Part shown: positions 1 through 41,270 of the stretch, in pieces | Layout of the letters: each line of letters starts with the position of its first letter | Numbering within the stretch: the first letter of the stretch is position 1 | Source of the DNA: Candidatus Desantisbacteria bacterium | GTDB taxonomy: Bacteria; UBA9089; CG2-30-40-21 | Assembly: GCA_043806395.1 (NCBI GenBank) | Contig: JAZDHC010000039.1 | Location: forward strand, 1-42,945 | Length of the DNA stretch: 42,945 nt | Direction: 5' to 3' | The notes under the pieces: model-generated | Databases searched by the model: none | Told to the model about the DNA's origin: nothing | The model's input: only the letters and a program-made list of their open reading frames with translations | Made by a program: the position numbers and the translations under genes

Positions 1-265
1 GCAGAATTGGGATTTGAAATCAACAAGAAAGTTGAAGGGGGTTGAAATTTCTGGCTCACAAATATGGAGTCTGTCATAAATTCTTCGTTACCGCTTGGGG
101 CGAAAGAGGCCACAGTGGAGTGGGCTCTCTGTTCTTAAGTCTCTGCACCCCCCGCTATTGAGGGCAAGGGGGTGGAATTCTGTACCACAATCACTTACAA
201 TGAATGCGATGAATAGTTGCAATTACAATTCTACTGTCTCGTCAACTCTTAATTGTCGGTAGGCA

Positions 266-385
266 GTAATTCTCATTATGAACCGCAGAGACGCAGAGTC
301 GCAGAGAATTTTATATGTTTCACTCAGCGTTTCTTCTCTGCGTCTCTGCGTCTCTGCGGTGAAAAAATATCAAAATGAGAATTAC
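266..385. repeat. ORF-less long hairpin, CGCAGAG-unit family
   Basis: Arms GTAATTCTCATT..CCGCAGAGACGCAGAGTCGCAGAGAA and TTCTCTGCGTCTCTGCGTCTCTGCGG..AATGAGAATTAC are reverse complements around a ~25-nt loop. It lies 16 nt 3' of the rpoC stop and may double as its terminator. Confidence 0.8.
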
Positions 386-400
386 TACCATTGCGTCAGT

Positions 401-3400: not shown

Positions 3401-4798
3401 ATGTATCTTGAGGGCATCACCTTCAACTAAGACAGGCTCAAATGACTGAATACCTGCCCGATGAAGTGTTGGGGCACGATTTAACATGATGGGATGACCA
3501 GCAATAACCTTTTCTAAGATGTCCCATACCTCAACCCTTTCCTTTTCAACCATTCTTTTAGCATTTTTGATATTATGGGCAAAGCCATTTGCTACTAATT
3601 GCCTCATAATAAATGGCTTAAATAATTCTAACGCCATCTTTTTCGGCAATCCGCACTGATGAAGATTCAAGGTAGGATCAACCACAATCACAGACCGTCC
3701 AGAATAATCTACTCGTTTACCAAGAAGATTTTGTCTAAATCTTCCCTGTTTACCCTTAAGCATATCAGACAAAGACTTTAATGGCCTATTCCCTGATCCT
3801 CTTACCGGTCTGCCCCGTCGGCCATTATCAAAGAGGGCATCCACTGCCTCCTGAAGCATTCTTTTTTCGTTACGAATAATGATCTCTGGCGCCCTTAGCT
3901 CCATTAATCGCTCTAATCTATTATTTCTATTAATTACCCTGCGGTACAAATCATTTAAGTCTGATGTTGCAAACCGTCCACCATCTAATTGGACCATTGG
4001 CCTGAGTTCTGGTGGAATAATCGGGATAACATCTAAAACCATATACTCTGGCTTATTTTCTGAATGACAAAACGCCTCCATAATCTCCAGCCGCTTGACA
4101 ATTCGTTTGCGTTTCTGCATGGAGGTTTCATCTCTCATCCCCTTTCTCAACTCTTTGGCGGATGCGTCTACATCAATCCTCTTTAATAATTCCTTGATAG
4201 CCTCAGCACCCATACCTACCTTAAATTTATCTCCATACTTTTCACGGTAACCTCGATATTCATCCTCAGTAAGCACATCTCGTTCTGCCAGAGGGGTATT
4301 GCCTGGATCCATAACAATATAACCCTCAAAATAAAGAACTAATTCTAAGTTCTTTACAGTAACATCTAACAATAGTGCCATTTGAGATGGAACCCTCTTA
4401 AAATACCATATATGTGAAACAGGACAGACCAATTCAATATGTCCCATCCGATGTCTCCGCACCTCAGAGCGGGTAACCTCTACCCCACATCTATCACAAA
4501 TTACACCCTTATATCGAATACTCTTATACTTGCCGCAAAAACATTCCCAGTCCTTGGTCGGTCCAAATATCTTCTCACAAAAAAGCCCATCCCTTTCTGG
4601 TCTAAAGGTTCTATAATTGATTGTTTCCGGCTTCTTTACCTTGCCATGTGACCATGACTTGATATTGTCAGGGGATGCCAACCCAATGGCTATAGAAGAA
4701 AAATTCATCATTCCTTCGCTGCTTTTTTGTTCAAACAAAGAGTCAAAGGTAACCTTTTGTTTTTTTTCAGGTATATTAAATGATTCAACTGGTTCCAA
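401..4798 (-). CDS. rpoC: DNA-directed RNA polymerase subunit beta'
   Basis: 1465-aa ORF with the NADFDGDQM catalytic loop, N-terminal Cys-rich zinc motif, trigger-loop MRTFHIGG and a large SI3-like insertion. TTG start at 4798 with AGGAGG 7 nt upstream. Follows rpoB. Confidence 0.98.
537..566 (+). repeat. CCCCC/GGGGG hairpin repeat copy embedded in the rpoC 3' coding region
   Basis: ATTCCCCCTTTGAAGGGGGTCAGGGGGATG closely matches the intergenic copies at 29853-29884 and 42871-42900 in the same orientation. Translated as ..PLTPFKGGI.. in the beta' tail. Confidence 0.7.
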
Positions 4799-4822
4799 TC
4801 TCGTGCCTCCTAATAATTGTAA

Positions 4823-4874
4823 GCATTCAGCTATCAGTTTTCAGCTGACAGTTTCCTGACTGACTGCTGATTGC
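4823..4874. repeat. Short low-complexity hairpin in the rpoB-rpoC spacer
   Basis: GCATTCAGC ... GCTGATTGC imperfect inverted repeat enclosing TCAGCTGA-type units. Related CATTCAGC/CAGTTGACAG words recur at 8432-8590. Confidence 0.45.
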
Positions 4875-4879
4875 TTCCC

Positions 4880-10354: not shown

Positions 10355-10390
10355 AACATTCACCTTCTTTTAGGAACATATAAAAGGCAA

Positions 10391-10463
10391 TTAGACTGTA
10401 GACTGTCAGGCTGTAGGTAAAGACGAATAACCTATAGCCTATAGCCTATAGCCTATAGCCTAA
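10391..10463. repeat. Hairpin with heptamer-unit arms (GCTGTAG / CCTATAG x4) between rplK and rplA
   Basis: TTAGACTGTAGACTGTCAGGCTGTAGG .. loop .. CCTATAGCCTATAGCCTATAGCCTATAGCCTAA. The arms are imperfect reverse complements, and the right arm is a 4-unit tandem heptamer. Confidence 0.75.
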
Positions 10464-10464
10464 A

Positions 10465-11442: not shown

Positions 11443-11664
11443 TTATCTTCCAATTACAAAATTTAATAAAGCAATAAAAACCCAGTCAACGAGTCCAATA
11501 TAGGTAGTAATTATTGCTACACAAACGATTACTACCCCTGTTGCTCCCAGAATAACCTTTTTTGTAGGCCAAGAAACTTTGCCATTTTTAGGAGAAACTT
11601 CGACCCAAACTTCTCTTAAAAATTTTTTGGCTTTATTATGAATTTCTATTATTTGCTGTTTCAT
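11443..11664 (-). CDS. secE: Preprotein translocase subunit SecE
   Basis: 73 aa with a basic N-terminus plus a single C-terminal TM helix. Canonical position directly upstream of nusG. Confidence 0.85.
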   Translation of the reverse strand: MKQQIIEIHNKAKKFLREVWVEVSPKNGKVSWPTKKVILGATGVVIVCVAIITTYIGLVDWVFIALLNFVIGR

Positions 11665-11716
11665 CTTTTTCCTACGCTTCCAGAGACTTTATACACTAAC
11701 ACCTTAGACTATCGGA

Positions 11717-11850
11717 CACCTCTAAAAACTCACTGAAGCCACGCTGGCGATGTTGCAAAGCTGCTCAAAATGCTCATTTACCACATGTAAACTGCGCTTT
11801 TTCGCATCTTTGCGCCTTGCCATCATCACTTGATTGAGCTTTTAGAGGTG
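11717..11850. repeat. 134-bp imperfect palindrome between tRNA-Trp and secE
   Basis: Perfect 11-bp termini CACCTCTAAAA / TTTTAGAGGTG, with arms of ~65 nt roughly 70% complementary by eye. No ORF. Confidence 0.7.
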
Positions 11851-11905
11851 CCCTATCCTGAGTATATCAAGGAAGAAACTGAAGGCGAACAAATTACATA
11901 ATTAC

Positions 11906-11981
11906 TGGCAGGCCCGACAGGACTCGAACCTGCAACCCTCGGTTTTGGAGACCGATGCTCTACCAATTGAGCCACAGGCCT
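11906..11981 (-). tRNA. trnW: tRNA-Trp (anticodon CCA), CCA end encoded
   Basis: Reverse complement AGGCCTGTGGCTCAATTGGTAGAGCATCGGTCTCCAAAACCGAGGGTTGCAGGTTCGAGTCCTGTCGGGCCTGCCA folds by hand into a cloverleaf. It has a 7-bp acceptor, GCTC/GAGC D stem, TCGGT/ACCGA anticodon stem, CUCCAAA loop and TTCGAGT T-loop. Confidence 0.95.
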
Positions 11982-12132
11982 ACTTTGTTTCTTTATGAAC
12001 AGTATGTGCCTGACAAAATGGACAGTACTTCTTTAATTCCATTTTTGCAGTCTGTTTCTTTTTATTTCTTGTTGTATTATAATTTCGTCTCTTACAGTCT
12101 GAACATGCAAGAATAACCATTTCTCTTGACAA
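11980..12132 (-). CDS. rpmG: 50S ribosomal protein L33 (not in the ORF track, below the length cut-off)
   Basis: Hand translation: (M)[49 protein letters not shown], with CxxC..CxxC L33 zinc-ribbon spacing. TTG at 12132 has GAGGG 6 nt upstream; the alternative ATG is at 12120. Stop TAG at 11980-11982. Confidence 0.88.
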
Positions 12133-12155
12133 TTTTATCCCTCACTTAAATATTA

Positions 12156-12293
12156 CTACTTAGGTATATAGACTGTAGGTGTTTAGGTTGTAGGGTAAAG
12201 AAACAGAAACAGAAACACGGAATTATTAATGCAACACATCTGAAAAACTAACAGCCTACAGCCTAATTGTCTACAGCCTAACTACCTGAGTAG
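12156..12293. repeat. Long hairpin, CTGTAGG/CCTACAG-unit family, in the rpmG leader
   Basis: CTACTTAGGTATATAGACTGTAGGTGTTTAGGTTGTAGGGTAAAGAAACAGAAACAGAAACACGGAATTATT .. AACAGCCTACAGCCTAATTGTCTACAGCCTAACTACCTGAGTAG. Same family and loop core as 13816-13935 and the partial copy at 22345-22400. Confidence 0.8.
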
Positions 12294-12307
12294 TTACGAA
12301 AGATCAT

Positions 12308-12336
12308 AGTATATCATGAAATTCATACGATGTCAA
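12308..12336 (-). promoter_or_regulatory. Sigma-70-type promoter upstream of rpmG / tRNA-Trp / secE
   Basis: Minus strand reads TTGACA - 17 nt - TATACT. Confidence 0.55.
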
Positions 12337-12376
12337 GATATATTTTGCAACCCTTCAGCATTTTATATCAAATGCA

Positions 12377-13099: not shown

Positions 13100-13170
13100 T
13101 TACATTTCACCGGTATTATATTTGATGAAAAAAATAACCTCATTTTCCGTAAGAAAAGAAGTCGATATTA

Positions 13171-13199
13171 ATCATATCATACTATCTTGCTTTTGTCAA
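13171..13199 (-). promoter_or_regulatory. Sigma-70-type promoter for the UPF0280 gene
   Basis: Minus strand reads TTGACA - 17 nt - TATGAT, about 70 nt upstream of the start codon. Confidence 0.5.
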
Positions 13200-13290
13200 G
13201 CATTTTTTTACAAAAACTTCTGAATCCGTCGACAGGCTGTTACGGAATAGGAATTTGGCATGAAATACATACAATATGTTGTTCGTATTC

Positions 13291-13382
13291 TGTAGGGACA
13301 TCCCCTTGTGGGTGTCCGGTTACTTCAACCTTTTGCAACCATTCGTTGCATTTTACGGATAGGGACAAGCCCTGTCCCTACG
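13291..13382. repeat. Pair of REP-like units in inverted orientation
   Basis: TGTAGGGACATCCCCTTGTGGGTGTCC ... TAGGGACAAGCCCTGTCCCTAC with a small TGCAAC/GTTGCA hairpin between them. Confidence 0.7.
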
Positions 13383-13527
13383 ACAATAATAAATCATTGA
13401 TATGAATGTCAATAGGTAGTAACTTGGGTTAACTACTTAGGTTGCGTTATGTTACGCAACCTAAAGCTTACAGCTATCAAGTAAACACCAGATAACTGAG
13501 GCATTATCTAACATTCTTTGCTCTTCT

Positions 13528-13573
13528 CCCTACAGTCTAAATGCCTACAGCCTATCTACCTGATCAGTTACGA
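13528..13573. repeat. Solo right arm of the CTGTAGG/CCTACAG hairpin family
   Basis: CCCTACAGTCTAAATGCCTACAGCCTATCTACCTGATCAGTTACGA matches the right arms at 12250-12299 and 13905-13941, but no left arm is present. Confidence 0.5.
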
Positions 13574-13788
13574 TTATATCATAAATAATTCAAAAGTCAG
13601 CAGAAAATTCAATTTTACCACATTTTATTCTTGGAGAGTGTTACAATGTTGTGGTTTTTTAGGCATAAGAGGCAGCTCAGAATTATCATATACACATAAC
13701 ACAAACCAATAATATTACACTTGCTACTGGCTAACAAGCATGTAATCAATTGATGACTGGCTGATTACATCTTGAGGGTAAATTCTAT

Positions 13789-13817
13789 TTGACTTTAATT
13801 GTAAATTATGTTAAACT
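13789..13817 (+). promoter_or_regulatory. Sigma-70-type promoter for the CDF transporter / mqnA unit
   Basis: TTGACT - 17 nt - TAAACT. The -10 abuts or overlaps the first bases of the hairpin repeat at 13816. Confidence 0.5.
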
Positions 13818-13935
13818 ACTCAGGTGTTTAGACTGAAGGCTGTTAAACTGTAGGGTAAAGAAGCAGAAACAGGAGAATTATTGATGTAGTTCGCGTCTTT
13901 CAAACTAACAGCCTTCAGCCTAAACACCTGAGTAG
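13816..13935. repeat. Long hairpin, CTGTAGG/CCTACAG-unit family, in the CDF gene leader
   Basis: CTACTCAGGTGTTTAGACTGAAGGCTGTTAAACTGTAGGGTAAAGAAGCAGAAACAGGAGAATTATT .. AACAGCCTTCAGCCTAAACACCTGAGTAG. The 11-bp termini are perfect inverted repeats. Confidence 0.8.
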
Positions 13936-13970
13936 TTACGATATAATATCCTCCTGGAGGGCTAAAAGCG

Positions 13971-19470: not shown

Positions 19471-19515
19471 AGCATTCGTGCTTGGTGAATTCCGATTGCA
19501 CAGGTGGTATTTTTT

Positions 19516-19590
19516 GCCACGAATTATACAAATTATACGAATAATAAAATCTTCCCCCTCCCTATTCGTGCTATTCGTGTAATTCGTGGC
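19516..19590. repeat. Hairpin with 9-nt unit arms (ATTCGTGNN)
   Basis: GCCACGAATTATACAAATTATACGAATA .. loop .. TATTCGTGCTATTCGTGTAATTCGTGGC. Confidence 0.75.
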
Positions 19591-19618
19591 TAAAATTCTC
19601 CTCTTCTTTCATTTTATT

Positions 19619-19679
19619 GTAGGGGCAGACCTATGTGTCTGCCCTCAAATACAGGGCGAACACATAGGTTCGCCCCTAC
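19619..19679. repeat. Inverted pair of REP-like units overlapping the larC stop codon
   Basis: GTAGGGGCAGACCTATGTGTCTGCCC .. GGGCGAACACATAGGTTCGCCCCTAC. The TAG of the second unit (minus strand) is the larC stop. Confidence 0.8.
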
Positions 19680-20821
19680 GATACCCTGATACATTCCCAA
19701 TACACTTCTTGTAAGGGTACATCTTGTTCTATAGCAATTCTGCGACATTCTTCATATTCAGGCATAACCCTTTTTTTGTCTTCAATGGTTGCTTCCTTTG
19801 CCGTTAATATGCCGTACCTTGTATTTAACTCTACTGATTGGCGAGGAAGTTTTTTTCGTGGCATTCGTTGTATTCGGATACCAATGGTGGTTGTTTGAGA
19901 GAAGATAAAGGAGATTAATCTGTCTACGGTTTCCTCCAGAGTAAGTACACTTAGGAGTATTCCCATCCTGTTTTTTTTCCCATGAATTGGGGTCAGGTAA
20001 ACATCTAAGGCTCCTTGCTTCATTATCCCTTCCATCAAATAATCGTATATCTCCGGGTTCATATCATCAATATTAGTGGAAAGCAGGGTAACAACATCCT
20101 CCTCATAAATATCTGTTGTCTCACCTATAAAAACGCGTAATATATTGGGAATGTTTGTCTCATGGCTTCCTGCCCCATAGCCGATCTTTTTCACTCTCAT
20201 TTTCGGCATGCAATCAACACCCGTTCCAAGGGTAGTAATAATAGCTGCACCCGTAGGGGTGGTTAATTCCTTATCTGCTCCAGGCGAAGAATATACAGGA
20301 AAGCCCTTTATCAATTCAGCGGTTGCTGGTGCTGGAACAGAGAGTATGCCATGTTCACAACAAACCTTTCCGCCACCCAGATTTAATGGGGATGAATAAA
20401 TCTTGTCTATTCCAAGATAATGCAGAGACAGGACACTGCCCACCACATCAACCAAAGTATCCTTATCCCCTAACTCATGAAAATGCACCTCGTGGGAATG
20501 GATACCATGGGCAAATGCCTCTGCCTGAACCAATCGGTCTATTATCTGGCAGGAGGTTGTTTTTATCCCTTCATCTAAGCTGCTCTTATTAATGATAGAA
20601 AACATTTCTGTCGGAGAAAGTCTTTTTGTATCCACAAGAACATGAGCACATAACCCCTTGAGTCCAGACATGGTAACACTTGTGGTTTCAAGAGAAAACT
20701 CTATCTCCATACTGGACAACTCTTGGGTTAACCATTTAATATCTACCCCGGCATCAAGCAATGCCCCCAAAATCATATCACCGCTTATACCGGCAAAACA
20801 ATCAAAATAAGCTATTTTCAA
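19676..20821 (-). CDS. larC: Nickel-pincer cofactor biosynthesis protein LarC (DUF111 nickel insertion protein)
   Basis: Preferred TTG at 20821 ((M)KIAYFDCFAGISGDMILGALLDAG.., the canonical LarC N-terminus) with GGAG 7 nt upstream, 381 aa. The track start at 20998 reads through the hairpin repeat (..LCLCVSAV..). Confidence 0.85.
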   Translation of the reverse strand: MKIAYFDCFAGISGDMILGALLDAGVDIKWLTQELSSMEIEFSLETTSVTMSGLKGLCAHVLVDTKRLSPTEMFSIINKSSLDEGIKTTSCQIIDRLVQAEAFAHGIHSHEVHFHELGDKDTLVDVVGSVLSLHYLGIDKIYSSPLNLGGGKVCCEHGILSVPAPATAELIKGFPVYSSPGADKELTTPTGAAIITTLGTGVDCMPKMRVKKIGYGAGSHETNIPNILRVFIGETTDIYEEDVVTLLSTNIDDMNPEIYDYLMEGIMKQGALDVYLTPIHGKKNRMGILLSVLTLEETVDRLISFIFSQTTTIGIRIQRMPRKKLPRQSVELNTRYGILTAKEATIEDKKRVMPEYEECRRIAIEQDVPLQEVYWECIRVS

Positions 20822-20842: not shown

Positions 20843-20990
20843 ATTCACCGCAGAGACACAGAGGCACAGAGAGGGAAATATGGGATGTGTCCCTGCATTT
20901 CCCCTGCATTTCCCTTGCATTTCCCTATCTGTGAAATCTGTGAAATCTGTGTAATCTGTGGATATATTCTTCTCTGTGCCTCTGTGGTAA
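20843..20990. repeat. ORF-less hairpin, CGCAGAG-unit family, with internal 11-nt and 9-nt tandem units
   Basis: ATTCACCGCAGAGACACAGAGGCACAGAGAG .. CCTGCATTTCC x3 .. ATCTGTGAA x3 .. TTCTCTGTGCCTCTGTGGTAAA. Confidence 0.8.
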
Positions 20991-26571: not shown

Positions 26572-26578
26572 TAATTAT

Positions 26579-26680
26579 CAATTCAGCAATTCAGCAATTG
26601 ACAATTCAGCAATTGACAATTGATAATTACTGAATTACTGAATTGCAGAATTGATGAATTACGGGATTGATGAATTACGG
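26579..26680. repeat. Low-complexity hairpin built from AATTNNNN 7-8 nt units
   Basis: AATTCAGC AATTCAGC AATTGAC AATTCAGC AATTGAC AATTGAT | AATTACTG AATTACTG AATTGCAG AATTGATG AATTACGGG ATTGATG AATTACGG. The halves are imperfect reverse complements. Confidence 0.7.
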
Positions 26681-26690
26681 AGGATAGAAC

Positions 26691-27590
26691 ATGAAATTAC
26701 ATTTATGGCTAACATGTATGCTGATAAGTCTGTGTTGTCTGACAACTAATGTCTGTGCATCAGAGCCTCGGATAGCTATTGTTATCTCTCGGCAGATACA
26801 GCCTTATATGGCCGTTGTCCGGGAGATTAAGGCAGGAGTAAACGCTGTCTTTTACGAATACAACCTGAATGGGGACAAGAGGAATATTCAGAAAATCATC
26901 GCAGAGATTTTGTCCAAAAATCCTGATATTATTGTGGCTATTGGGACAGAAGCTGCTGATGGCTGTTGCGGTAAGACCGAGGGTATACCAACAATCTTCA
27001 GCATGGTGTTGAATCCCTATATTCTCAAGCTCAATATGAGCGGGGTGGCTCTGGATATCTCAGCCAAAGCCCAGATATTGACATTACGAAAGATATTGCC
27101 AAAGGCTAAAAAGATAGGGGTTATCTATAATCCCGCAGTCTCTGCCTCTTTAATCGCTCAAGCCCAAAAAGAAAACATCTCCATTGTTGCCTCTCCTGTG
27201 AAATCTGAATCGCAGATTGCACCTGCCTTAAAGAATATGCTTGATCAGGGCAGAATAGATGCCTTCTGGCTTATTCCTGACCCAATGGTTGCCAATCAAT
27301 CAATTGCCCGGTATATCTTAGAGACAACCCTGAAGGCTAATGTTCCGGTTTTTGCCCCATCCCCGGCATTTGTGAAGAATGGTGCGTTATTCTCGGTTTC
27401 AGCTTGTTATGACCGGATTGGCAAGCAGACGGTCAAACTTATTGGGCAAATATTGACTAATGGTAATACTCGAATATTTATAGAAGAGCCGGAAGATCCG
27501 ATTTTAACGATTAATCTTAAGACGGCTGAATTGCTGAATATTGTTATTCCGGATCAGGTGAAGAATTTAGCTGATGAAACGATTGAATAA
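26691..27590 (+). CDS. ABC-transporter-type periplasmic substrate-binding protein (ABC_sub_bind-like)
   Basis: 299 aa with a signal peptide and a two-lobe PBP-like pattern (..KKIGVIYNP.., ..DAFWLIPDP..). Sits directly upstream of a histidine kinase. GGAGGA RBS. Confidence 0.6.
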   Translation: MKLHLWLTCMLISLCCLTTNVCASEPRIAIVISRQIQPYMAVVREIKAGVNAVFYEYNLNGDKRNIQKIIAEILSKNPDIIVAIGTEAADGCCGKTEGIPTIFSMVLNPYILKLNMSGVALDISAKAQILTLRKILPKAKKIGVIYNPAVSASLIAQAQKENISIVASPVKSESQIAPALKNMLDQGRIDAFWLIPDPMVANQSIARYILETTLKANVPVFAPSPAFVKNGALFSVSACYDRIGKQTVKLIGQILTNGNTRIFIEEPEDPILTINLKTAELLNIVIPDQVKNLADETIE

Positions 27591-27595
27591 AAGAT

Positions 27596-28045
27596 ATTCA
27601 CCGCAGAGACGCAGAGGCACAGAGAATATATGGGAATAAATCAGATAACAGAGAAAATTATTGGCGCAGCAATTGAAATACATAGGACATTGTGTCCAGG
27701 TTTATTAGAATCTGCTTACGAAGAATGCTTATGTTATGAGCTATCTATGGCAGGTCTACATTTCAGAAGACAAGTTGAATTGCCTGTGATATATAAGGGC
27801 ATTAAATTAGATTGTGGCTATCGAATGGATATTCTTATTGAAGAAAAAGTTGTGGCAGAATTAAAAACAGTGGAAAAATTACTACCAATTCATGAGGCTC
27901 AACTTTTAACCTACCTAAAAATGATGGATAAAAGGATAGGCTTGTTGATTAATTTTAATGTTTCTGTTCTCAAGGATGGAATTAAACGCATAGCACATAA
28001 CTTTTGAATTTTCTCTCTCTGTGTCTCTGCGTCTCTGCGGTGAAT
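27596..28045 (+). mobile_element. 450-bp cassette: GxxExxY gene flanked by ~30-bp terminal inverted repeats of the CGCAGAG hairpin family
   Basis: Left ATTCACCGCAGAGACGCAGAGGCACAGAGA (27596-27625) versus the reverse complement of the right end ATTCACCGCAGAGACGCAGAGACACAGAGA (28045-28016) gives 29/30 identity by hand. Confidence 0.65.
27630..28007 (+). CDS. GxxExxY family protein (PD-(D/E)xK nuclease-like, PDDEXK_3)
   Basis: 125 aa, ..[25 protein letters not shown].. (GLLESAY = GxxExxY) and ..[13 protein letters not shown].. (D..ExK). No recognisable SD. Confidence 0.8.
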
Positions 28046-28066
28046 ATTTACTTTATGAGGTGTATC

Positions 28067-29698
28067 ATGCTCATACGACCTACTCTTGGATTTAAGCTTA
28101 TCCTCTCTGTCAGCCTTTTGGTAATCAGCCTTGCTGTAATTTTAGGCAGTTTTTTTGTTTGTGAACAGAAAGCACTTATTGAAAGCGAGCTTCGTAATCG
28201 TGGGTTATCACTATCTGAAAATCTGGCTTATAATAGCGAGTATGGGCTGCTTTTTGAGAATAAGGAGATGCTGGATAAACTTATTCAGGGCGCAATTAAA
28301 AATGATGATATAGCCTTTGTAGCTATTTGTGATCAAAATAGCAAGATTATTGCCTCTTCTGCTAATTCGACATTGTGGGTAGATTTCCTCAAGGGTGTCA
28401 GGACAACTCATAGTACCATCAATCAATATTCTTACAAGGGCAAGAATGTGTATGATATTATTGCCCCTATCTCTACTGTCAGGGGGATAAACAAGGGTGA
28501 AGGGTTAATCTTTGATAGCCAGATTAGTCAAACAAGGCAAGAAAATATTGGGTTTGCCCGAGTAGGGGTATTGCTTGAGAACAAGGAAAAAACTGTAAAA
28601 AACATACAAATGATTGCCTTTTTTATTTCTCTCCTTGTTATTATAGGTGGAATAATCTGGACTGTATTGTTAACCAGAAGAATCACCCAGCCAATAAAGC
28701 AATTGGTAAGGGTGACTGCAAGGGTAGCTGAAGGGGATTTATGTCGTTTCGCAAATGGGAAGATACGGCATGATGAGATTGGAGATCTTATCGCTGCCTT
28801 TAATGCGATGACCGAAAAATTATCTGAATCAGCTGAACAGATAGAGGCATATACGAAAAACCTTGAACAAATGGTTGAAGAGCGGACGAAAGAACTAAAA
28901 GATGCAAATGAAAAACTTAAAAAACTCGATGAGTTAAAAAGCAACTTTCTTTCGGTTGCAGCACATGAACTAAGGACACCACTGACATCTATTCGGGCAT
29001 TTAGTGAGTTATTGCTTGATGATCCTGATGGGGATATAAATACCAGAAGTGACTTCTTAAAGATTATGAAAGAAGAAACCGAAAGGTTGACTCGGATGAT
29101 TAATGATATACTTGATCTTTCTAAGATAGAGGCAGGGAAAGCAACATGGCATATGCAGGATATTTCTATGGTAGAGGTTGTTAAATCCGCTGTCGATAAA
29201 ATAAAGGGGTATATTGTTCAACAAGGTGTACTCCTGAGCGTAGATGTTCCGGCATACATTTCAATTGTTACTGCTGATTATGATAAATTGATTCAGGTAA
29301 TGGTTAATCTCCTGAACAATGCCCTCAAGTTTGTTGGGGATAATGGAAGAATAGGGGTTAAGATTTACGAAACAACAGAGCCGCAAAACCATGAGGTTAT
29401 TACCGCTATCTCTGATACTGGTCATGGCATCCCGCCAGAAAAACTTGGCAGTGTCTTTGAAAGATTCTGTCAGATAGAAAATATCCCCACAGAGGTAAAA
29501 GGCACCGGGCTTGGCTTGACTATCTGTAAGGAGATTGTTGAACGCCTTGGTGGCAGGATATGGGTGGAAAGTGAGATTGGTAAGGGGACAACATTTTTCT
29601 TTAGTTTGCCGGTGAAGGGAACAAATATTTCGGAGGAATATTCCGCTCTTCGCAGGAATGATGCCGGAGAACCTGGATTCCTGCCTTCGCAGGAATGA
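28067..29698 (+). CDS. Sensor histidine kinase (TM - extracytoplasmic domain - TM - HAMP - HisKA - HATPase_c)
   Basis: H-box ..AAHELRTPLTSI.., N-box ..NLLNNALKF.., G-boxes ..DTGHGI.. and ..GTGLGL... Preferred ATG at 28067 with GAGGTG upstream. The track start at 28004 reads through the cassette's right repeat, and the last ~20 codons are encoded by GGAATGAC-family repeats. Confidence 0.9.
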   Translation: MLIRPTLGFKLILSVSLLVISLAVILGSFFVCEQKALIESELRNRGLSLSENLAYNSEYGLLFENKEMLDKLIQGAIKNDDIAFVAICDQNSKIIASSANSTLWVDFLKGVRTTHSTINQYSYKGKNVYDIIAPISTVRGINKGEGLIFDSQISQTRQENIGFARVGVLLENKEKTVKNIQMIAFFISLLVIIGGIIWTVLLTRRITQPIKQLVRVTARVAEGDLCRFANGKIRHDEIGDLIAAFNAMTEKLSESAEQIEAYTKNLEQMVEERTKELKDANEKLKKLDELKSNFLSVAAHELRTPLTSIRAFSELLLDDPDGDINTRSDFLKIMKEETERLTRMINDILDLSKIEAGKATWHMQDISMVEVVKSAVDKIKGYIVQQGVLLSVDVPAYISIVTADYDKLIQVMVNLLNNALKFVGDNGRIGVKIYETTEPQNHEVITAISDTGHGIPPEKLGSVFERFCQIENIPTEVKGTGLGLTICKEIVERLGGRIWVESEIGKGTTFFFSLPVKGTNISEEYSALRRNDAGEPGFLPSQE

Positions 29699-29787
29699 CA
29701 CTTGTTTCGCAGGAATGACATTTGAGGAATCCAGAGGGAACAAAGAATTGCAATGGAATGTCATTCCTGCGAAGGCAGGAATCCAGA
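29650..29787. repeat. Cluster of GGAATGAC / GTCATTCC units
   Basis: CGCAGGAATGAT..CTGGATTCCTGCCTTCGCAGGAATGAC..CGCAGGAATGAC .. GTCATTCCTGCGAAGGCAGGAATCCAG. Overlaps the histidine kinase 3' end. Confidence 0.75.
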
Positions 29788-29950: not shown

Positions 29951-32900
29951 CTAAAAATCATACCCCAAACTAAAATGTGTTACCGACCCTGATGGTGAAT
30001 TTATAAAATCCGTGCCCCGGGCATAATCTATCCTTATGGGAAAAACCCATAGGTTTGACCTTATCCCCCAACCAAATGCACCCCTTATCGGGTTTTCAGC
30101 GTCAGCCTTACGGAATACTGGTGGTTGTCCTTCGCGCCATGCAGCACCAACATCAAAAAATACAAGGGAACGAATGTTTCTAATAGATACTGGTAGGGCA
30201 AATTGAATGGTATCAATCAATGGGAAACGAAACTCAAATGAACCCTTGGCAAATGCCTTTCCCATTATTTCTGTCCCTCCCCTGAATTCATCAACAAAAT
30301 ATTGTTTTACCCTTCCATTTTCATCTGTAACAATTATTCCCCCATTGCCGAGGATAAATGTGGTTTGGTCCCGTCCGGTTGAGGTTTTACCGCTAAGTTG
30401 AAATGCCATGGCAGACCTGTTGCCAGCCTTGATATACTTTCGCAGGTCTATCTCAAGATTAGTAAAATCAAGATCATTATTTGAAAGATGGATTGTATTG
30501 CTAACCCCTATCCTTGCCCTTGAACCACCAATGGGTCCGTCCCACGACCAGACAGTTGTATCATGAATAAGATCAGCTGAGACAAGATTTATATTCTCCC
30601 TTTTGGTTGATGGGGCAGGCAAAATACAGTCAGTTACAACCCTTTTGGATGTAAGCCCAAACTCTACTCGACGAAATATATCCAATGGATAGGAAATATT
30701 ACCAGAGATACCAGAATTCTTTTCCTTAAATTCCTCACCGATGAATCTATAGGAATTAGACCAATCAGATATATCTACCTCACAGGAGGCTCTTTTGCCA
30801 AGATAAAGATAGGCAAGGATGAAATTGGCGTCCCCGGCAAGAGAGGATGATGCATCACCCCTCCAGATAATTCGATGGTTACCAAGCACATCGCTCATAG
30901 CCAACTCTCCTACCCCTGCAAATCCATTAGCAGAGCTGTACAACATATCCATTCTTCTCCAGTCAAAGGTAATCCTTGTTTTGTATGGGATTATGTTCCC
31001 ATCTCGGACAGGGACGAGCCCTGTCCCGACAGTAGAGGTACTACCCATTTTCCCCTGCATTTCTGGCTGAATCCAGACGATTGCCAAGGGCTTTTCATGA
31101 AAATAAACAGCATTTCCCCCATTTTCATAGGACGAAAAACTCAGCTTATCGCCCATATATCCACCATTAAATGCCCCGCCAAAGTAATCTGTCACTTGAG
31201 CTATCTCACCTGTTTGGGAGTTGGGAGTTGGGAGTTGAGAGTTGAGAGTTGGGAGTTGAGAGTTGGGAGTTGGGAGTTGAGAGTTGGGAGTTGAGGGTTG
31301 GGAGTTGGGAGTTGGGAGTTGAGAGTTGGGAGTTGAGGGTTGGGAGTTGTGAGTTTTTTTCTCCTGTCCACTACTAACTGCCAACTGCCGACTGTCAACT
31401 GACCCCTGCCGACTGTCCTTTACCGCCCAAATGTTGTATGTCTTATTAAGCAGACACGAGCAATAAACAATATCACCTTCCGGTGACCAGAATGGATCTA
31501 TTTTTGGCAGATCAGGCAATGCAAGTCTTTTAACCTCCATAGTATCCATATTCAACACACAAAGATCCGTTGTCGTTCCCGACTCACGGATAAATGCTAC
31601 TTTATTCTGGGCAGGTGAATAGGCAGGCTGTCTATCCATTCCATGGGTAATCTTTTCCAGCTTTTTTGTGGGGATATTAAAGCTATAGATATTGCTTTCC
31701 CCATTTTTAAGTCCTGAGAGGAGGATGTTGTCGCTATCCTGAGCAAAGCACAAAGAGGAGATATTATCCAAATCTACCTTTATTTTCTTTAATAATTTAT
31801 TATCAAATACATCAAAGAGGAAAATAACATCCCTGTTCTTATATTTAGCAATAAAGGCAATCCTTGAACCATCCCTTGAATAGGCAGGTCCTGCCTCAAA
31901 ACTGAGGTCTTCAAATTTTACCCCCCGCATCCCTTCTGTAATATATTTAACCACCGTTCCATCTGATGTTTTCATTAAGGCTATGCAGGGGATGCCATCC
32001 TTAATAATAGTAACTGCCACAAGATCTCCGCCGGGTGAAAATGATGGGGCAGCAAGGATTACCTGATCTTTGAAAATCTGCTGGCTGTCATCAGCAGCAA
32101 GCCTTCTTTTGGCTACCTCAGGGTAATATGCTTTACGGAGTGATTTTATCCATCCTGTTTCTAATTGTCTAATATCAACGCCCAGTGCTTGTTTGATAGT
32201 CCCTTCCAACCCTGCACTTTTTTTGAATTTTCTCAAAAGGATGGATACCTTTTCCTCTCCATAGGTTTGGGCAATATATCGCAGTAGGGAATGGCTTTCC
32301 TGATAGGCAAGAAATACATTACCAGTCATTCCGAAATCTGTTAAATTTTCTAATGGGTCAATACGATTTTCCACAACCGCATCCACCAGCATCATATGCC
32401 CCATGGGGTCAAATACCCCTGTTTCAAATTCAGCCAACCCCTCCATAAACCACATGGGCGGGATAGCAGAGGCAGAAAGCATGGATTGTAAGCCCTCAGC
32501 ATAAAGAACATCATAGGTAAAGACATGGACAAGCTCATGGGTAATAACCTTTTTGAATCGTAAATAGCTGCCGTCAAAAGGGATAACCATACGGGACTTT
32601 ATAACCTCAGAAAACCCTCCGACTCCTGGGTCAATCAATTCTGTGATAATATTTGTCTGCCGAAAGTCATAATGGGATTTGAAGATAATAAATGGAATGG
32701 GGCTTGAGACCTGATGCCTCAAGCTCTGGCTGATTTTAGCATAAGCCTCTTCAGCCATAGATGCCGCAACCCTGGCTAAATTTTCTGTCTTCTGGTCATG
32801 ATACACCTCAAAATGTTCTGTTTTTAATATCTTCCAGTCAACTTTGTTGTATCTGACCTTATTTTTCCCAAACTCATTCTGAGCTGATACGGAGGAGGTA

Positions 32901-32953
32901 AGGAAGAGAATAATGGATAATATGGTGATAAAATGTTTCATTAAAATACTCAT
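29951..32953 (-). CDS. Outer-membrane protein: HExxH (peptidase MA-like) domain + TolB-like beta-propeller repeats + repeat-encoded linker + Omp85-type C-terminal beta-barrel
   Basis: Signal peptide MSILMKHFITILSIILFLTSSVSA, ..ITHELVHVF.. zinc motif, PD40/TolB-like repeats (..YSPAQNKVAFI.., ..WSPEGDIVY..), and a C-terminus ..HFSLGYDF typical of OM beta-barrels. Confidence 0.7.
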   Translation of the reverse strand: MSILMKHFITILSIILFLTSSVSAQNEFGKNKVRYNKVDWKILKTEHFEVYHDQKTENLARVAASMAEEAYAKISQSLRHQVSSPIPFIIFKSHYDFRQTNIITELIDPGVGGFSEVIKSRMVIPFDGSYLRFKKVITHELVHVFTYDVLYAEGLQSMLSASAIPPMWFMEGLAEFETGVFDPMGHMMLVDAVVENRIDPLENLTDFGMTGNVFLAYQESHSLLRYIAQTYGEEKVSILLRKFKKSAGLEGTIKQALGVDIRQLETGWIKSLRKAYYPEVAKRRLAADDSQQIFKDQVILAAPSFSPGGDLVAVTIIKDGIPCIALMKTSDGTVVKYITEGMRGVKFEDLSFEAGPAYSRDGSRIAFIAKYKNRDVIFLFDVFDNKLLKKIKVDLDNISSLCFAQDSDNILLSGLKNGESNIYSFNIPTKKLEKITHGMDRQPAYSPAQNKVAFIRESGTTTDLCVLNMDTMEVKRLALPDLPKIDPFWSPEGDIVYCSCLLNKTYNIWAVKDSRQGSVDSRQLAVSSGQEKKTHNSQPSTPNSQLPTPNSQPSTPNSQLPTPNSQLPTLNSQLPTPNSQTGEIAQVTDYFGGAFNGGYMGDKLSFSSYENGGNAVYFHEKPLAIVWIQPEMQGKMGSTSTVGTGLVPVRDGNIIPYKTRITFDWRRMDMLYSSANGFAGVGELAMSDVLGNHRIIWRGDASSSLAGDANFILAYLYLGKRASCEVDISDWSNSYRFIGEEFKEKNSGISGNISYPLDIFRRVEFGLTSKRVVTDCILPAPSTKRENINLVSADLIHDTTVWSWDGPIGGSRARIGVSNTIHLSNNDLDFTNLEIDLRKYIKAGNRSAMAFQLSGKTSTGRDQTTFILGNGGIIVTDENGRVKQYFVDEFRGGTEIMGKAFAKGSFEFRFPLIDTIQFALPVSIRNIRSLVFFDVGAAWREGQPPVFRKADAENPIRGAFGWGIRSNLWVFPIRIDYARGTDFINSPSGSVTHFSLGYDF
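31213..31352. repeat. In-frame heptanucleotide array (GTTGRGA, the reverse complement of TCYCAAC), ~20 units, inside the 1000-aa gene
   Basis: 19 contiguous units at 31220-31352 plus one degenerate unit, translated as ..NSQPSTPNSQLPTPNSQ... Six further 7-nt units (RACTGNC) follow at ~31377-31418. Confidence 0.9.
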
Positions 32954-33028
32954 GCGATGACACTCAATTTGGGCGACATCGGTTGTAATATTGTGTGATG
33001 TAGGGATATGTCCCCAAATTGGGTATTC

Positions 33029-37832: not shown

Positions 37833-37939
37833 AAGGCTGTAGGCTGTAGGTTAGGAAAGGGAAGGATATGGGATAAATAATCTGTCTTCTGCCTTTCTCC
37901 TTCCTACCTACAGCCTATAGCCTAATAGCCTACAGCCTT
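37833..37939. repeat. Long hairpin (GCTGTAG / CCTACAG units, GGAAGGGAAGGATATGGGATAA loop family) in the hslU leader
   Basis: AAGGCTGTAGGCTGTAGGTTAGGAAAGGGAAGGATATGGGATAAATAATCTGTCTTCTGCCTTTCTCCTTCCTACCTACAGCCTATAGCCTAATAGCCTACAGCCTT. Confidence 0.8.
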
Positions 37940-37965: not shown

Positions 37966-39330
37966 ATGCAAGATTTAACCCCCAGAGAGATTGTCAGTGA
38001 ACTTGACAAATACATTATTGGTCAGGATAAAGCCAAAAAGGCAGTAGCTATTGCCTTAAGAAACCGTATCCGAAGACAAAGGTTAGCAGAAGAGTTGAGG
38101 GAAGAGGTTTCTCCGAAAAATATTATCATGATTGGTCCCACGGGTGTGGGTAAAACAGAGATTGCGCGAAGGCTTTCTAATTTAGCCAATGTCCCATTTC
38201 TCAAGATAGAGGCAACAAAATTTACAGAAGTAGGTTATGTTGGTCGGGATGTGGAGTCAATGGTGCGGGACCTTACCACTATGACGGTAAATTTAGTTAA
38301 GCAGGATGCTATGAAAAAGATAGAGAAAGAGGCTCTGGACATGGTTGAGGAAAAAATCTTAGATATTCTCTTGCCTTTACCAAAGACAAAGAAGAAGAAA
38401 AAATCTGATACAGAAGAAGTGGATATTGCTGCACAGGAAGTGGAAAAGATTCAAAATAGTCGTGAAAAACTACGGAAAAAACTACAGCAAGGTAATTTGG
38501 AAAATAGAATGATAGAGATAGATACTAAGGATACCTCTATGCCTATGTTTGAGATATTTGCTGGAAGTGGAATGGAAGGGCTTGATATGGGGCTGTCTGA
38601 TGCCTTAAGCACGATGCTGCCGCAAAAGGTTAAGAAAAGAAAGGTGACTGTTGTAGAGGCTCGTAGAATCCTGATCAATGAGGAATCACAAAAATTAATT
38701 GATATGGAAGATATCCTTAAGGATGCCATTAACCGCATAGAAAACCAGGGGATTATCTTTTTGGATGAATTGGATAAGGTGGTCAGTACAGGATCCCGAA
38801 CAGGTGGACCAGATGTTTCCCGTGAGGGTGTTCAACGGGATTTATTGCCTATTGTTGAGGGAACTACTGTTACTACCCGTTATGGGCCGGTCAGAACAAA
38901 TCATATCCTCTTTATTGCTGCTGGAACATTTCATGATGCAAAACCAGCAGACATGATCCCGGAATTACAGGGAAGGTTTCCTATCAGGGTAGAACTCTCT
39001 TCATTGGTAAGGGAGGATTTTATCCAGATATTGACCGAGCCACGAAATGCTATTATTAAACAATATGTGGCTTTGCTTGGAACTGAGGGGGTTGAGCTAC
39101 AGTTTAAGGAAGATGCTATACATGAGATTGCTTCCCTTGCCGCTACTGTTAACGAAAATACTGAAGATATTGGAGCAAGAAGACTTCATACTATTATGGA
39201 AAAGGTGGTTGAGAATATCTCCTTTGAAACCCCACCCCGCACAGGAACGGTTATTATTGATGCTGAATATGTGCGGTCTATGTTAAATGAGATTATTAAG
39301 GATAAGGATTTGAGCAGGTATATATTGTGA
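37966..39330 (+). CDS. hslU: ATP-dependent protease ATPase subunit HslU
   Basis: 454 aa, [34 protein letters not shown].., Walker A GPTGVGKT and the I-domain insertion. GAGGTG RBS. Confidence 0.96.
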
Positions 39331-39338
39331 GGGGGAAA

Positions 39339-39657
39339 GGCTTTTAGTCTGAAGGCTGAAGGTAGGAAGGGAAGGATATGGGATAATATGGTTCTATCAC
39401 GATTTGTGTGGGTAAATAAGAGATAGGTTTATCGCTTTCATTCCACACCAGAGTATGTCATCTGGAGGTATTTCTACTTCCATGTGCGGGGGTTAAATGT
39501 ATACTTTGGAGTAGTTAAAGCGATAAACCTTCTTCAATACATATTAAGAATGTTCTGTAAGGTTGATAAAGAACCAACTTTATCTTACCCACACAAATCG
39601 TAATAGAGCCGATAATATTTCCTGCCTTTTTCCCTCATACCTTCAGCCTAAAAGCCT
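39339..39657. repeat. Hairpin of the same family as 37833-37939, interrupted in its loop by a MITE
   Basis: GGCTTTTAGTCTGAAGGCTGAAGGTAGGAAGGGAAGGATATGGGATAATAT [insert] GATAATATTTCCTGCCTTTTTCCCTCATACCTTCAGCCTAAAAGCC. Confidence 0.8.
39390..39610. mobile_element. 221-bp MITE-like element with ~26-bp terminal inverted repeats and an 8-bp target-site duplication
   Basis: Left end GGTTCTATCACGATTTGTGTGGGTAA versus the reverse complement of the right end GGCTCTATTACGATTTGTGTGGGTAA (24/26). Flanked by GATAATAT at 39382-39389 and 39611-39618. Internal second inverted repeat GGTTTATCGCTTT / AAAGCGATAAACC. No ORF. Confidence 0.8.
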
Positions 39658-39659
39658 AA

Positions 39660-41177: not shown

Positions 41178-41270
41178 TTTCCTTCTCCATAGGTTGAATA
41201 CATGTAGGGGCAGACCTATGTGTCTGCCCTGTATTGAAATTAATCACTTCCCCTCCCCATAGGTTGAATA
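41170..41270. repeat. REP-like unit (41201-41239) flanked by a 31-bp direct duplication (41170-41200 and 41240-41270)
   Basis: The copies TTAATCATTTTCCTTCTCCATAGGTTGAATA and TTAATCACTTCCCCTCCCCATAGGTTGAATA differ by 4 T/C transitions. The insert is CATGTAGGGGCAGACCTATGTGTCTGCCCTGTATTGAAA. Confidence 0.85.

Follow-up and report, generated by a model that had tools for sequence, protein, structure and literature searches.

A gene of the GxxExxY family (PDDEXK_3 in Pfam) lies in the loop of a long hairpin between two genes of a contig from a metagenome-assembled genome (MAG) of Candidatus Desantisbacteria; this contig of 42,945 nt, analysed at full length, is called the window below. The gene and the arms of its hairpin, which are made of tandem CRCRGAG units, constitute a real, non-chance unit that spans phyla. 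The resulting cassette is a DNA-level insertion, gained or lost at orthologous operon junctions, and a form with the open reading frame (ORF) and a form devoid of it share one site. In addition, the arm sequence itself, besides its pairing, is under constraint. The element looks like a relative, apparently undescribed, of the ORF-carrying intervening sequences (IVSs) of 23S rRNA. The parts of the window cassette and its two host genes are as follows.

27594..27625 (+): left arm, ATATTCAC followed by the tandem 8-mers CGCAGAGA CGCAGAGG CACAGAGA, 4 nt ahead of the ATG
27630..28007 (+): GxxExxY / PDDEXK_3 gene, 125 aa, from profile matches and an alignment of homologues
28016..28047 (+): right arm, TCTCTGTG TCTCTGCG TCTCTGCG followed by GTGAATAT, reverse complement of the left arm (31/32)
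27587..28055 (+): whole predicted transcript stem-loop, with a closing stem of ~38 bp and the ORF filling the loop
26691..27590 (+): upstream host gene, ABC-type substrate-binding protein (SBP), PF04392; stop at 27588-27590, 3 nt from the left arm
28067..29698 (+): downstream host gene, sCache/HAMP histidine kinase; gene call from the sister contig L001

The two arms (27594-27625 / 28016-28047) form an inverted repeat of 32 nt, 31/32 (97%) complementary, with 390 nt between them; a first-pass annotation of the window had already seen the ORF bracketed by repeats of ~30 nt, which are thus slightly longer. The gene coordinates also agree with its placing of the cassette between the SBP stop (27590) and the kinase start (28067), but removal of the repeat-bounded element would leave a spacer of about 22 nt and not the ~27 nt that it had expected. 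The cassette fills the spacer from the SBP stop to the Shine–Dalgarno sequence of the kinase (GAGGTG), with the end of the right arm 9 nt from this sequence and 19 nt from the kinase ATG. Folding of the whole cassette as RNA gives a minimum free energy (MFE) of -141.1 kcal/mol (z = -7.0), a stability reached by 0/100 shuffles. The two-unit motif CRCAGAGNCRCAGAG was counted 11 times in the window, where shuffles predict 0.01 (0.30 in a separate count for the exact motif); its hits outside the cassette make up two ORF-less hairpins. No sigma-70-like or otherwise promoter-like site was found inside or just ahead of the left arm, and a weak purine-rich AGAGAA stands 4 nt ahead of the cassette ATG; the earlier view of an ORF with neither promoter nor Shine–Dalgarno sequence therefore holds for the former and is to be softened for the latter. 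Judging from these signals, the window cassette has no promoter of its own and is transcribed by operon read-through. An Rfam scan of the window returned one tRNA only and no rRNA, so that the cassette does not lie in a 23S rRNA gene.

The encoded protein belongs to its family with high scores, both against TIGR04256 GxxExxY (155.2 bits for a cut-off of 35, E 7.7e-46) and against PF13366 PDDEXK_3 (149.8 bits for a cut-off of 22, E 5e-44, residues 4-121 of 125). G24, E27, Y30 and the catalytic residues D67, E77 and K79, invariant in 25 homologues, are intact in it. Residue 22 (27693-27695) is a cysteine in the window protein and in its 99%-identical sister copy, at a position occupied by glycine in at least 90% of the 25 aligned homologues (LGPGLLES motif). 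The AlphaFold model (predicted local distance difference test score, pLDDT, of 92) predicts with confidence a minimal PD-(D/E)XK domain; the nearest solved folds, all weak (E >= 0.01), are Cas4 SSO0001, lambda-exonuclease-like proteins and CinB, and a sequence search for relatives of solved structure found none. Fold matches of this weakness therefore permit no inference of a substrate. PADLOC gives at most a weak similarity to Cas4 and a PHROGs search nothing, leaving membership in a known defence or phage family without support from either resource. A literature search found no functional paper for GxxExxY or PDDEXK_3, no paper with the arm sequences and no description of the gene-and-arm unit, although the curators of the TIGR04256 and TIGR02436 models may have remarked on a similar context. 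To our knowledge, GxxExxY (PF13366) and S23p (PF05635), two large families of small proteins, have been assigned no function.

A phylum-spanning unit of gene and arms

The association was surveyed at 80 homologous loci from species-representative genomes, 79 of them evaluable, an arm being defined by at least two tandem C-R-N-N-R-A-G units. The motif is present on the left of the gene at 65/79 loci, on the right at 50/79, on both sides at 44/79 and on neither at 8/79 (left-only 21, right-only 6), compared with 14/623 (2.2%) and 7/623 (1.1%) of control random windows. An ungapped inverted repeat scoring at least 15 spans the gene at 42/79 loci and at 0/223 control positions in the same loci. 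The consistent flanking of GxxExxY ORFs by these arms, raised as a check by the first-pass annotation, is thus found well outside the window. The arms lie a few nucleotides from start and stop at unrelated loci in at least 12 phyla, the hosts comprising Planctomycetota, Acidobacteriota, Alpha-, Beta- and Gammaproteobacteria, Desulfobacterota, Bacteroidota, Cyanobacteriota, Chloroflexota, Verrucomicrobiota, Elusimicrobiota and Methanophagales, and close homologues (60-86% identical) occur in many phyla. A second Desantisbacteria MAG (L001) carries an identical cassette at the same locus, and the same arms are found at unrelated loci in an unclassified bacterium (spacer between an ETF-like gene and a hypothetical gene) and in a deltaproteobacterium (radC / hsdM spacer). 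Two GxxExxY genes stand within a few kb of each other at 7/169 fetched loci.

The cassette ends are conserved as TTCACC... and ...GGTGAA, the general form being TTCACC-(CRCRGAG-N)2-4 on the left, with three units in the window, and (N-CTCYGYG)2-4-GGTGAA on the right. Besides CGCAGAG and CACAGAG, the variants CACGGAG (Acidobacteriota), CAGTGAG/CGGTGAG (some Alphaproteobacteria) and CACGAAG (some Bacteroidota) are encountered, and their distribution tends to go with the host group. The right end GGTGA often stands 6-13 nt ahead of the ATG of the next gene and resembles the 3' part of an extended Shine–Dalgarno sequence. Database gene calls are often extended by translated arms, with 'NRRDAETQR' at the N-terminus and 'SASPRLCGE' or 'SASLRLCGE' at the C-terminus; in one subtype the ATG lies at the outer edge of the arm (ATGAACC...), and there the arm seems from its sequence to be coding. 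In Terriglobia L123 (3350-3480) and L161 (right cassette junction), the stretch after the GxxExxY stop holds an entire ORF-less hairpin from this arm family, giving the order arm-ORF-arm-loop-arm, which shows that arm duplication next to a cassette is possible.

The arms are conserved much more strongly than neutrality would predict. At 63 loci, third codon positions match the window gene at 34% on average, that is, at saturation, whereas the arm units agree with CGCAGAG at 84%. Units are separated by one or two bases, mostly purines, and these are often non-complementary between arms. The sequence of the heptamers is therefore conserved, and not their pairing alone, which points to sequence-specific recognition by some factor. 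The genes of the PF05635 family at L096, L202 and L149 are also enclosed in tandem-unit inverted repeats, but of other arm families; among the fetched loci, the CRCRGAG family thus tracks the GxxExxY family.

Insertion, turnover and residence at operon junctions

The junction between the trpD stop and the trpC start exists in three states in three related Betaproteobacteria, with flanks of 70-83% nucleotide identity in a flank-to-flank comparison of all fetched loci:

L085: empty junction, TAG-cccgc-ATG
L083: ORF-less hairpin, ATGAACCACAGAGACACAGAGGACGCAGAG, a loop of ~45 nt, CTCTGTGTTTCTGTGGTGAG
L203: ORF-bearing full cassette with the same arm family

Empty sites in relatives, proposed earlier as a check, hence do exist. 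The other proposed mark of mobility, a target duplication at copy boundaries, was not seen: 0/48 cassettes have a border direct repeat of at least 3 nt, and the lengths observed (0 nt in 28, 1 nt in 12 and 2 nt in 8) are as by chance, which argues against a classical transposase mechanism. A six-frame search of 37 hairpin interiors with hidden Markov models detected no GxxExxY remnants outside the window cassette, and the loops of ORF-less copies are unrelated to one another. ORF-less copies are therefore not recognisable deletion derivatives. The idea of an autonomous and a non-autonomous partner, put forward in the first-pass annotation, consequently keeps the link of ORF and arms and the shared orthologous site, and loses the expected remnants and target duplication.

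Within Desantisbacteria, at orthologous TonB-receptor / SBP / kinase loci (SBP 72-79% identical), the SBP-kinase spacer is never empty and its occupants differ:

window and L001: GxxExxY cassette
L162: ORF-less hairpin of the AGGCTGAAGG family
L163 (4898-5356) and L164 (3463-3921): AT-rich tandem-unit arms, AAATTAAAAATTATGAATTAAAAATTAAAAATGAG, around a 120-aa PF05635 23S_rRNA_IVP gene (E 3.6e-23)
L166: small unrelated hairpin

The adjacent TonB-receptor-SBP spacer undergoes the same kind of hairpin turnover. At the LuxR-larC junction of L291, a closer relative (LarC 83% identical), a hairpin of the same family is kept with the same right border, with all units reading CACGGAG in place of CACAGAG in both arms and with a wholly different loop, and a concerted change of all arm units is also found in L135, within the orthologous Terriglobia set. 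From these comparisons, arms are kept and homogenised, loops are hypervariable, and at greater divergence whole families give way to others. In Terriglobia, Bryobacteraceae and Gammaproteobacteria, cassettes are vertically inherited, the flanking proteins being 65-94% identical and GxxExxY in the same range, a sign that the ORF is under purifying selection and has long resided at its site.

The neighbours of the cassette, taken as the nearest long ORFs, are both on its strand at 44 loci and both on the opposite strand at 5 (binomial p ~1e-8), and the spacers to them are typically 40-75 nt, roughly the length of an arm. Co-orientation and arm-length spacers place the elements inside transcription units and suggest that they depend on read-through or are compatible with it. 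The flanks of cassettes with large ORF-free surroundings contained no rRNA or other known RNA; in L131 such ORF-free flanks are an artefact of crude ORF picking in GC-rich DNA.

ORF-less copies, other cargo and other hairpins

The two ORF-less hairpins that the first-pass annotation had recognised elsewhere in the window are both real, with slightly adjusted borders, and are the same element minus its GxxExxY cargo:

262..389 (unstranded): ORF-less copy directly 3' of the rpoC stop (rpoC 401-4798, minus), left end ATGAACC
20849..20986 (unstranded): ORF-less copy between the stop of a LuxR-type gene (20995) and the Shine–Dalgarno/start of LarC (~20836/20821), both genes minus

The former has arms at 282-308 / 334-360 (27 nt, 96% complementary, 25-nt loop), which lie within a wider inverted repeat of 20 nt, 262-281 / 370-389. 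The latter has arms at 20849-20881 / 20962-20986, of which the paired part is 20857-20881 / 20962-20986 (25 nt, 88%). Its loop (20882-20961) is made of tandem repeats of other units, CCCTGCATTTC three times and ATCTGTGAA three times, which suggests that repeat units or elements nest inside hairpin loops.

GxxExxY is not the sole cargo of these arms. When a metagenome collection was scanned for arms spaced ~400 nt apart, 123 loci came up: 78 have a GxxExxY gene, eight have a conserved GC-rich stretch of ~330 nt that lacks a conserved ORF, and the remainder are nested or tandem ORF-less hairpins. The eight copies of the ~330-nt sequence, in CRCRGAG arms, are:

L208:3240-3600, L273:2465-2812, L242:4663-5012, L219:3157-3518
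L259:7412-7764 (-), L248:766-1128 (-), L281:4159-4503 (-), L280:476-816 (-)

RNAalifold (alignment A2) proposes 90 pairs for this sequence, 44 of them with compensatory double changes, and comparison with Rfam 15 gave no match at gathering thresholds (only meaningless hairpin matches at E <= 1). It is a candidate for a new structured RNA. Viral contigs have a Phage_gp49_66 gene and a Tad2-like (Thoeris anti-defence) gene between CGCAGAG-type arms, and most copies there are short ORF-less hairpins; the loci with cargo other than GxxExxY are:

L168:9468-9881, L169, L170
L055:372-653

The hairpin family is thus confined neither to cellular operons nor to GxxExxY cargo. These cases were checked by hand, an unbiased scan for repeat-bracketed ORFs being noisy (antisense ORFs, GC-rich DNA).

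Nearly every spacer of the window has a long hairpin with arms of tandem 7-8-mers of other families, for example TAGRCTGT/AGGCTGAAGG, CAATTSAG, CACGAATTA, GGGGCAGACCTATGTGTCTGCCC and CTGGATTCCTGCCTTCGCAGGAATGACA, and several of these arms give rise to odd peptides in spurious ORF calls. The hairpins of other families lie at:

4799-4879, 10364-10464, 13814-13937, 19511-19595, 19615-19683
26572-26690, 29673-29786, 32954-33028, 37834-37931, 41178-41243

The intergenic region 39331-39659 (329 nt) folds as a single very long nested hairpin (MFE -135 kcal/mol) with outer arms of AGGCT type and an internal 26-nt inverted repeat (39390-39415 / 39585-39610); it matched no Rfam family and may be another cargo-bearing hairpin. 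The 454-aa ORF at 37966-39330, considered as a second cargo, was rejected as an ordinary AAA ATPase gene between two separate hairpins. Elsewhere in the window, a large periplasmic-type ORF of 1000 aa (29951-32953, minus) contains a near-perfect 'PTPNSQL/PSTPNSQ' heptapeptide run in the 30875-31294 region, encoded by 21-nt tandem DNA repeats within the gene. Two long non-coding stretches, 11454-12376 (923 nt) and 13100-13970 (871 nt), lie either side of a 240-aa ORF without a Pfam match; a tRNA (11909-11981, minus) lies within the first, as does an imperfect inverted repeat of 38 nt (11711-11856).

Mechanism, alternatives and known systems

How such a unit persists inside operons is best approached through a combined model, towards which we lean without great confidence: a mobile, IVS-like hairpin cassette sitting in an mRNA operon, whose stem would be processed by RNase III and whose nuclease would act on the arms. 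The cassette, widespread and palindromic, with the GxxExxY nuclease gene in its loop, inserts at the level of DNA. The 32-38-bp stem of its transcript would be cut by RNase III, as in ORF-bearing 23S IVSs, and this cut would free the cargo RNA, so that insertions inside operons would be tolerated. The encoded nuclease would recognise the arm heptamers, acting in cis and in trans, and the element would in this way be propagated or kept by a process akin to homing, cognate hairpins and their loops being the landing sites. A wider version, tentative and on the whole doubtful, would see GxxExxY with CRCRGAG arms as one class of self-propagating hairpin cassettes, present throughout bacteria and in part of the archaea, with both the gene and other cargo landing in the loops of cognate hairpins; PF05635 (S23p) cassettes would obey the same logic and 23S IVSs would be the rRNA-resident tip of this class. 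If true, this would explain what the ORFs of IVSs are for.

Several observations weigh against the combined model. Long vertical persistence at some sites, as read from the sequences compared, argues against frequent movement. The ORF can persist without the hairpin, as at the 21 left-only loci, and in the orthologous Bryobacteraceae set, which has no right arm, the stop directly adjoins the following ATG. The arms do not strictly need the nuclease in cis, given the other cargo and the fact that most copies are ORF-less. The purine-rich left arm, with its GGAG/AGAG units, may also serve translation of the ORF, and in many cassettes the arm is apparently translated as an N-terminal extension, in which case a cut by RNase III in mid-stem would destroy that mRNA. 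Lastly, the mismatches in the arms are without G-U bias for the ORF strand (43 versus 38, a non-significant difference, in a clean mismatch count used in place of a duplexfold version of the test that was too noisy), and with no such bias RNA-level selection on pairing is not demonstrated.

The same observations can be arranged differently. The arms might be a generic intercistronic stem for processing or stability, in other words an RNase III site, and the GxxExxY gene a passive cargo with a function of its own (defence, toxin or repair nuclease) unrelated to them. Such a purely RNA-level explanation, which we think improbable and still worth serious attention, fits the tandem 7-8-mer hairpins in nearly all window spacers, the enclosure of covarying structured RNA and of phage genes by the same arms, the strong co-orientation with the operon, the precedent of the 23S IVSs and a similarity to Cas4 that is no more than weak. 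However, a constraint on structure alone would not hold heptamers at 84% while synonymous sites are saturated, nor does it tie this arm family to GxxExxY while IVP genes use others; the absence of G-U asymmetry is also unfavourable to it, and the hairpin can be dispensed with at a given junction, as the empty-site polymorphism shows.

The arrangement of a gene between inverted copies of a repeat that also has many ORF-less intergenic copies recalls instead the repetitive extragenic palindromes (REPs) and their RAYTs, REP-associated tyrosine transposases of the Y1/HUH type (IS200/IS605-like) that are flanked by REPs. A domesticated system of this kind, in which host-beneficial hairpins (for mRNA stability or genome structure) would be made and kept by a resident, vertically inherited GxxExxY enzyme, would account for inheritance at fixed sites in Terriglobia, Bryobacteraceae and Gammaproteobacteria and for the concerted change of all arm units at the orthologous sites of L135 and L291. 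We rate it as quite unlikely: the protein is of a PD-(D/E)XK nuclease family and not Y1/HUH, a single arm is not a palindrome, and the loci with two GxxExxY genes (7/169) together with 60-86% identity across phyla point to horizontal spread and not to one domesticated copy. That an ordinary small gene merely lies between two independent copies of an abundant repeat is scarcely credible. The repeats are indeed very dense in this genome, and the AAA ATPase gene (37966-39330) also lies between arms of two separate hairpins, but the ORF-arm unit recurs at unrelated loci in at least 12 phyla and none of the 223 controls reaches the inverted-repeat score.

With these data, a vague annotation becomes a testable system with a defined protein, a nucleic-acid motif, and empty and occupied sites. 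In automatic gene calls the arms often appear as translated N- and C-terminal extensions, and such hairpins may lead to cuts in the transcripts of operons. A nuclease of minimal size (125 aa) predicted to read a repeated heptamer would also be of interest as a tool.

Among known systems, the STRR (short tandemly repeated repetitive) sequences of cyanobacteria and Beggiatoaceae (TAACTGA) are intergenic tandem units of 7-8 nt by start codons, with a patchy cross-phylum distribution (PMC4679880). The present arms share these traits, unit length, proximity to start codons and patchiness included, but STRRs are mostly direct arrays without partner arm or cargo, whereas here inverted pairs surround a gene or a loop. 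Miniature inverted-repeat transposable elements (MITEs) likewise have terminal inverted repeats, many short gene-less copies and presence or absence at orthologous sites; unlike them, the cassette has no target-site duplication (0/48) and no DDE transposase, and its copies are not internal deletions and have unrelated loops. The REP/RAYT systems ('REPtrons') also place an enzyme gene between inverted repeats that are dispersed gene-less and homogenised within a genome. They differ in that the window enzyme is only PD-(D/E)XK by Pfam and NCBIfam, in that the arms pair across the gene as tandem 8-mers whereas REPs are self-palindromic, and in that the gene spreads horizontally and can be multi-copy. 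Homing endonuclease genes, free-standing or intron-borne, resemble the cassette by a small nuclease gene as sole cargo, polymorphic at an orthologous site and leaving host genes intact, and I-Ssp6803I is a homing enzyme of the PD-(D/E)XK fold. However, no self-splicing intron or intein is present here, and the insertion sites at operon junctions are unrelated in sequence, so that the homing site would be a cognate hairpin.

The closest likeness is to the ORF-bearing 23S rRNA IVSs (Coxiella burnetii, Leptospira, Xanthomonas, Brucella), whose origin and mobility have been in question since the early 1990s (PMC4990558). The Coxiella IVS has 428 nt and a 28-bp terminal stem cut in its middle by RNase III, with three to four tandem GACAGAT heptamers between a weak purine-rich Shine–Dalgarno sequence and the start of an ORF for S23p, a four-helix bundle of ~14 kDa; an old proposal has the IVS ORF encode a mobility function (PMC4990558). 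Both kinds of element measure ~430-450 nt with a terminal stem of ~28-38 bp and carry tandem heptamers or octamers on the 5' side (GACAGAT and the CACAGAG found here share ACAGA), and in both a loop ORF of ~120-125 aa with a weak purine-rich Shine–Dalgarno sequence and no promoter of its own is part of a host transcript. In addition, S23p (PF05635) occupies the same SBP-kinase spacer in sister Desantisbacteria. Unlike IVSs, the cassette lies at an mRNA operon junction and not in helix 9, 25 or 45 of 23S rRNA, and its cargo is PD-(D/E)XK and not the four-helix-bundle S23p; RNase III excision, known for IVSs, would apply to it by analogy. We know of no description of a conserved phylum-spanning arm sequence for IVSs. 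The alternative of the first-pass annotation, an ORF riding in a structured RNA as in 23S IVSs, therefore stands for the stem, the tandem units and the PF05635 gene of the sister spacer, and fails for the rRNA location and the S23p cargo. Of these systems, the element would be nearest in its working to an IVS joined with a selfish gene of the homing type.

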